A stretch of 64,000 bases of DNA, taken from the sequence record MK524176.1, one strand, 5' to 3'. The notes beneath the pieces were generated by a model, which saw nothing but the letters and a program-made list of their open reading frames with translations, had not been told where the DNA came from and searched no databases. Source of the stretch: Escherichia phage PHB11. The translations under genes and the position numbers were made by a program. Below, piece after piece: positions 10,688 to 11,492 of the stretch (the first letter of the stretch is position 1; every line of letters begins with the position of its first letter).

Positions 10688-10754
10688 AGACCAATTACAG
10701 CAAACTTAATCTTATTCATCTGACACGAAATCGGACAAAGAAGATATTTGGTCT
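10688..10754 (+). ncRNA. Stem-bounded element A (AGACCAA ... TTGGTCT)
   Basis: 7-bp inverted arms enclose about 53 nt beginning TACAGCAAA; family member, see findings. Confidence 0.35.
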
Positions 10755-10767
10755 GGTCATTAAGAAT

Positions 10768-10841
10768 TGCGGGTATAGAGAAAGGGCGTCTCACATGTCT
10801 CATTAGCATGGTATCGGCAGGTTCGACTCCTGCACCCGCCT
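10768..10841 (+). tRNA. tRNA with anticodon CAT (Met or Ile2)
   Basis: Acceptor GCGGGT/ACCCGC, D-stem GAGA/TCTC, anticodon loop CTCATTA, T-arm GCAGG-TTCGACT-CCTGC, CCA follows; fold atypical. Confidence 0.5.
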
Positions 10842-10856
10842 CCAATTTTGCAGAAG

Positions 10857-10913
10857 GCCGTATGCAGCAACAAACTACTTTTTGCGGATAAAAGAAAAAA
10901 AAAAAACACGGTC
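10857..10913 (+). ncRNA. Stem-bounded element B (GGCCGT ... ACGGTC)
   Basis: 6-bp arms (one G-U) enclose about 46 nt beginning ATGCAGCAA and containing an A13 tract. Confidence 0.3.
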
Positions 10914-10927
10914 TGGCAATGTATTAA

Positions 10928-11001
10928 GGTTAGGAAGCACATAAGGTATGTGCGGTCGCCTGTTAAGCGAATGGCACAGGGTTCGAATCCCTGACTAACC
11001 G
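10928..11001 (+). tRNA. tRNA-Asn (anticodon GTT)
   Basis: Acceptor GGTTAGG/ACTAACC, D-arm GCAC-ATAAGGTAT-GTGC, loop CTGTTAA, T-loop TTCGAAT, CCA encoded. Confidence 0.65.
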
Positions 11002-11013
11002 CCAAATTTAAAT

Positions 11014-11098
11014 GTGTCGTTATCCCGTAGATGGTAGCGGTGGGGACTGTAAATCCCTTGTCATTGAGACTCGGTAGGTTCGACTCCTACACGGCACA
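11014..11098 (+). tRNA. tRNA-Tyr (anticodon GTA), long variable arm
   Basis: Acceptor GTGTCGT/ACGGCAC, loop CTGTAAA, T-arm GTAGG-TTCGACT-CCTAC, CCA encoded; 85 nt. Confidence 0.65.
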
Positions 11099-11107
11099 CC
11101 AAATAAA

Positions 11108-11182
11108 GGTTATGTAGTTTAATCTGGTTAAAATACTCCCCTGTCACGGGAGATGATGAGGGTTCAAATCCCTTCGTAACCG
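11108..11182 (+). tRNA. tRNA-Asp (anticodon GTC)
   Basis: Acceptor GGTTATG/CGTAACC, stem CTCCC/GGGAG, loop CTGTCAC, T-loop TTCAAAT, CCA encoded. Confidence 0.7.
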
Positions 11183-11276
11183 CCAAATTATAATAAGTAT
11201 TTCAAGATGATGTTTTGAGAGGGCTATTTAGCCCCTCCCTTAAAGAGTTCTTACGAGTATTCTTTAAAGGAGCAGA

Positions 11277-11347
11277 AGACCAAATTCAGCAAGTACGTAT
11301 GATATTTTCAAGCCAATTTAATTTTGAAAAAATTTAAAACTTGGTCT
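11277..11347 (+). ncRNA. Stem-bounded element C (AGACCAA ... TTGGTCT)
   Basis: 7-bp arms enclose about 57 AT-rich nt beginning ATTCAGCAAG. Confidence 0.35.
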
Positions 11348-11366
11348 GGCTCAACAAATTTACAGA

Positions 11367-11492
11367 AGACCGTTTACAGCAAAACTTAAACAATCTATTT
11401 CTCCGGTAAAGAAAAGGCGAAGGTTCGATTCCTTCACTCGGCAGATGTCGAGTTGGTGTAATGGTAGCACTTAAGATGATAAACAACGGTCT
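11367..11492 (+). ncRNA. Stem-bounded element D with a permuted tRNA-like module (T-arm, loop-closed acceptor helix, D-arm); candidate Y-RNA-like RNA
   Basis: Arms AGACCGTT/AACGGTCT (perfect 8 bp). Inside, in order: T-arm GAAGG-TTCGATT-CCTTC, helix ACTCGGC-AGAT-GTCGAGT, D-like hairpin GTG-TAATGGTAG-CAC. No anticodon arm. Confidence 0.45.

Follow-up and report, generated by a model that had tools for sequence, protein, structure and literature searches.

Four elements in a Felixounavirus tRNA cluster belong to a widespread phage RNA family beside genes for Ro60-fold proteins and are probably Y-RNA-type RNAs

The tRNA cluster of Escherichia phage PHB11 raises the question of what the four stem-bounded elements interspersed among its first tRNA genes could be. 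We analysed 64,000 nucleotides of this phage (sequence record MK524176.1; the window), in which a preliminary description made from the letters alone had noticed four elements, A to D, with a shared sequence pattern and pairing arms. We find that A to D are members of a conserved RNA family whose terminal stem covaries, and that this family is tied by position and strand to the gene of a protein with a Ro60 fold. The explanation that we consider likely is that they are four paralogous Y-RNA-type small non-coding RNAs, three of them short and one tRNA-mimicking, which would be bound by the phage Ro60-like protein. By its sequence the window is Felixounavirus: the region shares 98.6% identity with Escherichia phage JH2, and the 342 phage records that match it are mostly Felixounavirus. 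ARAGORN finds 26 tRNA genes in the window, all on the plus strand between 10515 and 16100, and the elements sit among the first six of them. The first element begins 331 nt past the stop codon of the open reading frame (ORF) 8935-10350, the Ro60-like gene, which bears the Pfam domain DUF2828 and had gone unnoticed in the preliminary description.

The string common to the four elements, AGAAGRCC-N5-CAGCAA, is 19 nt long and occurs four times in the 64 kb when both strands are read (10685, 10852, 11274 and 11364), where 0.05 matches are expected (100 shuffles, one mismatch allowed). GGTCTGG has five copies on the plus strand of the window, and four of these are the 3' arms at 10750, 10910, 11343 and 11488. 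These scans find the four elements on the plus strand at the places first given for them. Each is closed by a covarying inner helix of 7-8 bp (A AGACCAA/TTGGTCT; B AGGCCGT/ACGGTCT; C AGACCAA/TTGGTCT; D AGACCGTT/AACGGTCT), and both the pairing of the arms and the change of CCAA/TTGG to CCGT/ACGG to which attention had been drawn are seen in the sequence. Overlooked before was an outer helix of 4 bp, whose arms likewise covary from copy to copy (in A TGAC/GTCA, in B TTGC/GCAA, in C GAGC/GCTC, in D TTAC/GTAA) and which is separated from the inner one by a conserved internal loop, where AGA of the 5' strand faces a G of the 3' strand. Because this helix lies beyond the loop, the elements are longer than had been stated (Table 1). 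The spacing is fixed, with NCAGCAA starting exactly 9 nt 3' of the first inner pair in all four. Two details of B also change, as its inner arm starts at 10855/10856 rather than 10857 and its A tract has 12 A and not 13. The minimum free energy (MFE) folds of A, C and D return the outer helix, the loop and the inner helix, and leave ACAGCAA unpaired. A and B occupy the spacers between neighboring tRNAs to within 3-8 nt, A that from tRNA-Glu (end 10676) to tRNA-Met (start 10768) and B that from tRNA-Met (end 10844) to tRNA-Asn (start 10928).

All four elements are kept in 15 related Felixounavirus loci, where their arms are both conserved and complementary. The one-sided changes among these loci are all compatible with G.U pairs on the plus strand (AGACCGA/TTGGTCT, AGGCCAA/TTGGTCT, GGGC/GCTC and AGACTGT/ACGGTCT), which argues for an RNA read from that strand. 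The outer helix of B shows a compensatory swap from TTGC/GCAA to TTAC/GTAA, and orthologues of C carry the variants GGGC/GCTC and GGAGC/GTTCC. Phage Bas63 carries all four elements. Small reverse-strand ORFs run over C, D and a further element at 11496-11637 (11334-11486 in the window; 2815-2967 and 2979-3089 in the related locus L091). In relatives such ORFs are annotated as hypothetical proteins, among them bas63_0137, which overlaps C and D, and bas63_0138, and they are probably spurious calls over RNA genes.

The closing structure recurs outside Felixounavirus as a module. It consists of a W-G-R-N4-6 helix, 0-2 spacer nt, UNCAGCAA with its start 9 nt from the first pair, an interior that varies, and a complementary 3' arm with Y-C-W at its end and an invariant G directly behind it; often there is also an outer helix on the far side of a bulge. 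The segment at the fixed 9-nt register is a single-stranded U-N-C-A-G-C-A-A. Short forms have a small hairpin and an A-rich strand ahead of the 3' arm, and this accounts for the A tract of B. We find the module adjoining DUF2828 genes and sharing their strand in many metagenomic contigs and in phages that infect Klebsiella, Aeromonas, Cronobacter, Mycobacterium, Listeria, Staphylococcus, Bacillus, Enterococcus and Campylobacter. The phage hosts span at least four bacterial phyla, and protein identity falls to about 27%. Klebsiella phage FBKp34 (52% protein identity) has three modules directly after the gene, the third with a tRNA-like interior, and in Mycobacterium phage Kingsolomon (34%; the protein is annotated 'Ro-like RNA binding protein') three lie within the 380 nt that follow the gene, of which the second is tRNA-like. 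Cronobacter phage S13 has one tRNA-like module, and KVP40 also carries the module. Aeromonas phage LAh_6 packs at least seven, of 51-64 nt each, into about 1 kb upstream of its DUF2828 gene (L003 ~3990-4960), at least five of them within the last 410 nt, while the loci L023 and L081 have about eight copies each over 2-3 kb. About 25 IMG/VR contigs have two modules either 40-100 nt or 425-490 nt past the stop codon, and in the Campylobacter, Listeria, Staphylococcus, Bacillus and Enterococcus phages (27-37% protein identity) the modules lie in an unannotated gap beside the gene.

These positions bear on two other explanations. The elements could be structured spacers that guide the processing of a polycistronic tRNA precursor, as entry points for ribonuclease (RNase) III, RNase E or RNase P, with no independent life as RNAs. 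Their place between tRNAs on the tRNA strand, the tight filling of two spacers by A and B and the frequent adjacency of DUF2828 genes to tRNA clusters (the gene adjoins such a cluster in most of the annotated phage genomes that we inspected) would all fit this. However, in Kingsolomon and in the metagenomic contigs L024-L048, for example, the module lies beside the protein gene with no adjoining tRNA, and its position follows the protein gene, not the tRNAs. A heptamer in fixed register and a tRNA-mimicking interior also exceed what a cleavage hairpin needs, and we regard a spacer function as quite improbable. Of the roles suggested in the preliminary description, small stable RNAs and protein-binding hairpins fit the evidence, while tRNA-precursor processing finds no support as the primary role, given the modules without an adjacent tRNA. 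Alternatively, the modules might be cis-acting operators in the untranslated regions of the DUF2828 mRNA through which the protein regulates itself, with no trans-acting ribonucleoprotein particles (RNPs). In many contigs they are indeed directly 3' or 5' of the gene. The window elements, though, lie 330-1150 nt downstream of it, past a terminator-like hairpin, two candidate promoters and two to six tRNAs, and elsewhere there are up to 7-8 copies per locus, some of them embedded in tRNAs, which makes an operator role very improbable in our judgment.

Several tests support the family independently of any choice of instances by eye. For the fixed-register test we took ACAGCA(A/T) cores on the gene strand within 700 nt of the gene, or within 2,300 nt downstream in Felix-like loci. 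At least 7 contiguous pairs ending next to a G were present in 88 of the 113 cores (78%), compared with 5.2% when the downstream 320 nt were shuffled and 5.1% on the minus strand. Earlier scans for any stem of at least 6 bp beside CAGCA, and for duplex energy, did not discriminate; they were replaced by the fixed-register test and a held-out model because chance closures are common within 260 nt. This covariance model, R1, was built from 30 short forms, none of them Felix-like. Run on both strands of the window it ranks B first (30.9 bits, E 2.1e-4) and A second (29.3 bits, E 4.8e-4), with C at 15.2 bits (E 0.63) and the 5' half of D at E 2.1, the last two being low because long interiors are penalised. 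A further match at 42446-42508 on the minus strand (22 bits, E 0.02 in the window-only search) lies inside ORF 42310-42669, was lost in the larger search and is probably due to chance. Across 68 sources (654 kb) there are 70 matches at E <= 0.05, all 70 on the gene strand; 37 are within 300 nt of the gene, 63 within 1 kb, and none is inside it.

The pairing itself varies widely. In the alignment made by the model, double changes occur in six of the seven pairs and the covariation score is 0.987, against 0.22 for shuffles (none of 500 as high) and at most 0.15 for slid partners; over both alignments the score is 0.83-0.99, with slid partners at 0.16 or below. The second alignment, of 86 distinct modules, is defined by register, and there P2 is always G-C, with 4-6 pair types seen at each of P1 and P3-P7. 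In a mixed short-form alignment the 3' arms of the Felix sequences were misplaced by MAFFT. That selection acts on pairing and not on sequence, as first supposed from the four copies, is borne out far beyond the window genome. The same results speak to the idea of repeats that act at the DNA level, such as protein-binding sites, remnants of mobile elements or targets of homing endonucleases. Four similar copies within 800 bp, and HNH endonuclease genes in these tRNA regions, might suggest this. But the changes are compensatory, the one-sided G.U changes on the plus strand would be A.C mismatches on the other, and the model matches fall 70:0 on the gene strand, so that we give a DNA-level role next to no credence.

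The protein that accompanies the module looks like a Ro60. ORF 8935-10350 matches DUF2828 (1.7e-28) and DUF7788 (1.3e-43) in Pfam, belongs to PHROG 850 ('RNA-binding protein'), and is found by tblastn in at least 709 phage records. We built an AlphaFold2 model from a 34-sequence alignment (predicted local distance difference test score 87.5, predicted template modelling score 0.88), in which a helical-repeat ring is followed by a vWA domain with a MIDAS motif, the arrangement of Ro60; DVSGS, T349 and D381 are invariant in the alignment of its family. The 12 best Foldseek matches in the PDB are all Ro60, Rsr or phage Ro60 structures over the full length (E 7e-8 to 2.5e-6), from Xenopus, human, Deinococcus (Rsr) and Thermus phage phiLo (9KOP, 9L5Y), and are followed by isolated vWA domains. 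The positional orthologue in Bas63 is bas63_0130, or gp130. A preprint on the PhageMaP method describes gp130 as structurally similar to Ro60, shows that it counters the Ppl defence system, and guesses that some of the 'tRNA genes' downstream of it are Y RNAs, without identifying any (PMC11482910). A PADLOC search of our own gave nothing useful.

Element D provides the closest link to known Y RNAs. It had been said to enclose a tRNA-like module, and its MFE fold agrees with this: a four-way junction of a V hairpin, a T arm (GAAGGUUCGAUUCCUUC), a 7-bp acceptor-like stem with a 4-nt loop, and a D arm, joined to the module by a helix that resembles an anticodon stem. The order V, T, closed acceptor stem-loop and D between the strands of a terminal stem is the defining layout of YrlA, a Y RNA of Salmonella and mycobacteria that mimics tRNA (PMC4201824). 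Eight other phage loci share the long form and domain order of D, and over 11 sequences covariation is seen in the T, acceptor-like and module stems. In the acceptor-like stem every change is compensated, the arms being ACTCGGC/GTCGAGT in the window and ACCCTTC/GAAGGGT in the relative L018 (86% protein identity); pairs of the D stem were left out of the formal count, as MAFFT placed that stem one column off when tRNA-like forms were aligned. Counterparts of D in other phages score 26.7-44.9 bits against the Rfam YrlA model RF02553 (E 7e-7 to 0.16), below its gathering score of 69. The best of them are from Enterococcus (44.9 and 34.0 bits), Klebsiella (39.6), L023 (38.2) and a Mycobacterium phage (37.9), with E from 7e-7 to about 1e-3, and the score stems from the tRNA-like T-acceptor-D domain alone. 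D itself has a partial match to the Rfam tRNA model RF00005 at 11386-11436 (22 bits, gathering score 29). It is not a tRNA in the usual sense: ARAGORN calls none in A to D, the acceptor stem of D is closed by a loop, and the stem of the module replaces the anticodon loop. Among the 4227 models of Rfam 15 the window elements have chance-level matches only (Dicty_Class_I_RNA on A and B, E 0.9 and 6.3), and 12 related loci have nothing at the gathering thresholds. We had also considered a hairpin-ribozyme-like activity, or splicing at a bulge-helix-bulge to give a circularised permuted tRNA; there was no Rfam ribozyme match, and the idea was dropped because the YrlA layout explains the 'permuted' order.

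A tRNA mimic without an anticodon loop is what a decoy for nucleases might look like. The elements could then be independent small RNAs that work without the DUF2828 protein, for example as decoys for host nucleases that target tRNAs or as sponges for RNA-binding proteins, and their synteny with the gene would reflect shared regulation or a shared theme; the RNA-repair genes found nearby in other phages would suit such a role. Against this, the same-strand adjacency is kept across all the phyla and the protein divergence described above and is the pattern of Ro60 and its Y RNAs (PMC4201824). The closing module is also invariant, whereas most copies lack the tRNA-like part. We consider an RNA that acts without the protein unlikely, and prefer the explanation in which A to D are Y-RNA-type partners of the Ro60-like protein.

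Comparison with known systems gives both likenesses and differences. YrlA and YrlB are bacterial Y RNAs bound by the Ro60 orthologue Rsr, described from Salmonella, Mycobacterium smegmatis and 22 phages (Chen et al. 2014, PMC4201824). As in that system, A to D lie beside a Ro60-type gene, on its strand and in several copies per locus; each has a terminal stem made from both ends and a conserved motif on the 5' side of a large internal loop, and one member has the V-T-closed acceptor-D domain while shorter members do not. The window family differs in its UNCAGCAA motif, its 9-nt register and its W-G-R ... Y-C-W-G stem, where YrlA-type RNAs have GNCGAAN0-1G, and in a partner of the DUF2828/DUF7788 type instead of a TROVE protein. 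The 5' arms read AGAAGRCC-N5-CAGCAA in A to D and WGR-N6-NCAGCAA in the family, and hold no CGAA. The Ro60 of Thermus phage phiLo binds two adjacent Y-RNA-like RNAs, Yrl1 and Yrl2, in vitro (PMC12135203). It is likewise a phage-encoded ring protein of the Ro60 type, and its structures are among our best fold matches, but it is a canonical Ro60 homologue that was found by sequence, and its RNAs by CGAA, whereas the window protein was found by fold alone and its RNAs are without CGAA. With the Y RNAs of vertebrates and Deinococcus (RF00019; Yrn1) the elements share an end-closed, bulge-interrupted stem as a platform for protein and a large loop for a second partner; canonical Y RNAs bind their protein through a bulged terminal stem and a motif on the 5' side. 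The elements have no sequence similarity or Rfam match to them, and it is their 5' strand that bulges, facing a single G on the 3' strand. Phage T4 offers a looser parallel, as its tRNA cluster encodes small stable RNAs that are not tRNAs (species 1 and 2, rnaC/rnaD) and are co-transcribed and processed with the tRNAs, although we know of no DUF2828 gene in T4.

Several observations weigh against the Y-RNA explanation and temper our confidence in it. The Rfam models Y_RNA and YrlA find no match in positions 10670-11650 of the window, even at E up to 10, and UNCAGCAA differs from the canonical Ro-binding motif (GNCGAA; GGUCCGA in vertebrates). Pfam does not find a TROVE domain in ORF 8935-10350, neither phmmer nor the 34-sequence profile found a Ro60 among the PDB sequences, and the homology to Ro60 rests on a predicted fold whose template modelling scores against the matched structures are 0.43-0.64. 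As for the RNAs, the MFE z-scores of A to D are modest (-0.6 to -2.0), and the short-form model has a match in only 44 of the 68 sources. Finally, the instances used for covariation were picked by pairing or by the model, and the share of cells that pair, 98.9% in the model-made alignment, is partly circular; the independent evidence is that of the enrichment, strand and held-out tests.

If the Y-RNA explanation is right, the module would be the binding platform for the ring protein, forming phage Ro-like RNPs, and the variable interior would be the effector or tether part. The small hairpin and A-rich strand inside A to C would parallel the short Salmonella YrlB, while the tRNA mimic inside D, like YrlA, could engage tRNA-binding enzymes or nucleases. 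Both sigma-70-like candidate promoters precede tRNA-Pro, and judged from their consensus they would drive a unit of the first tRNAs together with A to D; we found no plus-strand terminator within the tRNA cluster up to 11876. The elements may in this way share a transcript with the tRNAs, started at the promoters at 10368 and 10459, and be released by the tRNA-processing machinery, with RNase P at the next tRNA setting the 3' side and 3' maturation of the previous tRNA the 5' side. Since A and B fill their spacers so closely, this is the simplest biogenesis. The RNPs may serve in RNA surveillance or in a tRNA-centred conflict or counter-defence. The action of gp130 against Ppl and the nearby RNA-repair genes point to a conflict centred on RNA.

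Some phages carry the module in forms that resemble tagged tRNAs. Four 'long tRNAs' of 113-121 nt contain it (Table 1). That of Cronobacter phage S13 keeps the D and T arms and the CCA-bearing acceptor stem of a normal tRNA, but its anticodon loop is replaced, in this order, by an A-rich strand, the 3' arm, a triloop starting with G, the 5' arm, AU and UCAGCAC, which makes it an exact circular permutation of the YrlA-like form. In Klebsiella phage FBKp34 a capped module forms an extra arm between the D arm and the anticodon arm with GUC. In five tRNA-like members the loop that closes the acceptor begins with a discriminator base and CCA (e.g. ACCCUUC-G-CCA-AACA-GAAGGGU). Such loops resemble a tRNA 3' end joined to the next 5' end, and by analogy this suggests opening by RNase P and 3' trimming, as is reportedly the case for the YrlA of M. 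smegmatis. Other phages encode enzymes of RNA repair or maturation close to the DUF2828 gene, within a few kb. In Listeria phage LMSP-25 there is moreover a sub-threshold match to the ROOL model RF03087 (L087 2428-2979; 88.5 bits against a gathering score of 99.1, E 1.4e-16), which sits among tRNAs about 1 kb upstream of the DUF2828 gene and the modules. One tentative reading, which we would sooner doubt than accept, is that the closing stem and UNCAGCAA act as a transferable tag for loading a Ro-like ring onto RNAs of tRNA shape, and that this tag is used in two circular permutations. In the D type the RNA would have its ends at the tag and a closed acceptor stem; in the long tRNAs of S13 and LAh_6 the ends would lie at an ordinary acceptor stem with CCA, and the tag, with a small loop as its cap, would stand in for the anticodon loop. 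The resulting RNPs would form a tRNA-centred machine for counter-defence or repair. If that were true, the RNPs would work with the nearby RtcB, Rnl2 and CCA-adding enzymes, and the defeat of Ppl by gp130 would be explained.

Table 1. Positions of the elements, their parts and associated features (window unless a locus is given).
Feature	Locus	Position	Strand	Details
Ro60-like protein gene	window	8935-10350	+	471 aa; helical repeat ring region and vWA domain with DxSxS MIDAS motif
Terminator-like hairpin	window	10360-10391		after ORF 8935-10350
Candidate promoter, sigma-70-like	window	10368-10396	+	TTGACA-17-TAATAT; 10/12 consensus matches; from consensus match alone
Candidate promoter, sigma-70-like	window	10459-10488	+	TTGACA-18-TAAAGT; 10/12 consensus matches; from consensus match alone
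Element A, short form	window	10681-10759	+	outer helix 10681-10684/10756-10759; AGA 10685-10687 opposite G 10755; inner helix 10688-10694/10748-10754; UU, then ACAGCAA 10697-10703, interior hairpin, A-rich 3' segment; from sequence, MFE fold, model R1, 15 relatives
Element B, short form	window	10848-10919	+	outer helix 10848-10851/10916-10919; AGA/G loop; inner helix 10855-10861/10908-10914; AU; GCAGCAA 10864-10870; A12 tract 10895-10906; from sequence, fold, model R1 (top match in window)
Element C, short form	window	11270-11352	+	outer helix 11270-11273/11349-11352; AGA/G loop; inner helix 11277-11283/11341-11347; AU; UCAGCAA 11286-11292; AU-rich interior hairpin; from sequence, fold, model R1, orthologue variants
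Element D, long tRNA-mimic form, YrlA-type layout	window	11360-11497	+	outer helix 11360-11363/11494-11497; AGA/G loop; inner helix 11367-11374/11485-11492; ACAGCAA 11376-11382; from MFE fold, partial Rfam tRNA match
Interior of D	window			anticodon-stem-like helix 11385-11389/11471-11475; V hairpin 11398-11414; T arm 11419-11435 (GAAGGTTCGATTCCTTC); acceptor-like stem 11436-11442/11447-11453, closed by 4-nt loop; D arm 11456-11470
Members with N-CCA loop	L004	7154-7289
Members with N-CCA loop	L023	3378-3509, 3752-3881
Members with N-CCA loop	L018	6399-6527
Members with N-CCA loop	L081	3119-3240
Long tRNAs with module	L004	6896-7016, 7026-7138
Long tRNA with module	L003	2494-2610
Long tRNA with module	L002	6003-6116
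RtcB-type 'tRNA-splicing ligase'	L087 (Listeria LMSP-25)	6808-8019
RNA ligase 2	L003 (Aeromonas LAh_6)	10070-10993
tRNA nucleotidyltransferase (CCA-adding)	L004 (Cronobacter S13)	11280-11395

Other structured stretches of the window stand apart from the four elements. The hairpin CAGACC-UUAAGCAA-GUCUGG at 11595-11617, which had been proposed as a minimal fifth version, lacks support as a member: it is missed by R1 and found in the closest relatives only. It may be a degenerate copy of the module, and we do not count it. It lies inside a separate element at 11496-11637 on the plus strand, directly after D, in which a 24-bp terminal stem (AAUUAUCUUUGUAGAUAAG.../...CUUAUCUACAAAGAUAAUU) surrounds three hairpins (MFE -45.6 kcal/mol, z -4.6). 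This element is kept in the closest Felixounavirus relatives and absent in L011, L015-L018 and L020; going by its sequence, the long perfect duplex would be a substrate of RNase III. Another conserved phage non-coding RNA is probably encoded at 12040-12215 on the plus strand (core 12049-12173), an unannotated stretch between tRNA-Ile and tRNA-Arg with a strong promoter-like site ahead of it (11891-11919, TTGACA-17-TATAGT). It has 76-81% identity to unannotated DNA of unrelated phages, in the Vi1-like phages Cba120 and SFP10, in Klebsiella phages and in Salmonella phage FSL SP-058, and its fold (MFE -49.9, z -3.7) was equalled by none of 200 shuffles; its Rfam matches are weak and tmRNA-like. 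At 12457-12541 (plus strand) there is a possible degenerate tRNA-Trp-like sequence, with an acceptor GUGGGAC.../...GUCCCAU-G-CCA and a CUCCAAA loop, an aberrantly long D region and an imperfect T stem, which neither ARAGORN nor Rfam calls. A 137-aa ORF inside the tRNA cluster (13232-13645, plus strand) has a weak match to HNH endonucleases (E 0.005, below the Pfam cut-off), and its placement resembles that of homing endonuclease genes in the tRNA regions of related phages.

Pairs of Ro60 and Y RNA were already known, some of them in phages (PMC4201824, PMC12135203). New here are the distinct and widespread RNA family, marked by a module of its own, the association of this family with the DUF2828 clade, and the exact RNAs in Felixounavirus; the literature that we searched holds no description of these RNAs and no data on their expression, and the family is absent from Rfam 15. 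Phages with DUF2828 proteins include Felix O1-like, KVP40-like and Listeria P100-like phages and the cluster L mycobacteriophages. For annotators, the RNAs are a reason to drop the small reverse-strand ORFs that lie over them, such as bas63_0137, and knockout data on bas63_0137 and bas63_0138 may actually report on the RNAs. The 'tagged tRNA' forms, which are permuted by nature, also make an unusual lead by themselves. With the RNAs, their module and their boundaries named, the guess that Y RNAs lie downstream of gp130 (PMC11482910) becomes directly testable, and the partnership of Ro60 and Y RNA would be extended to a second, very divergent clade of proteins.

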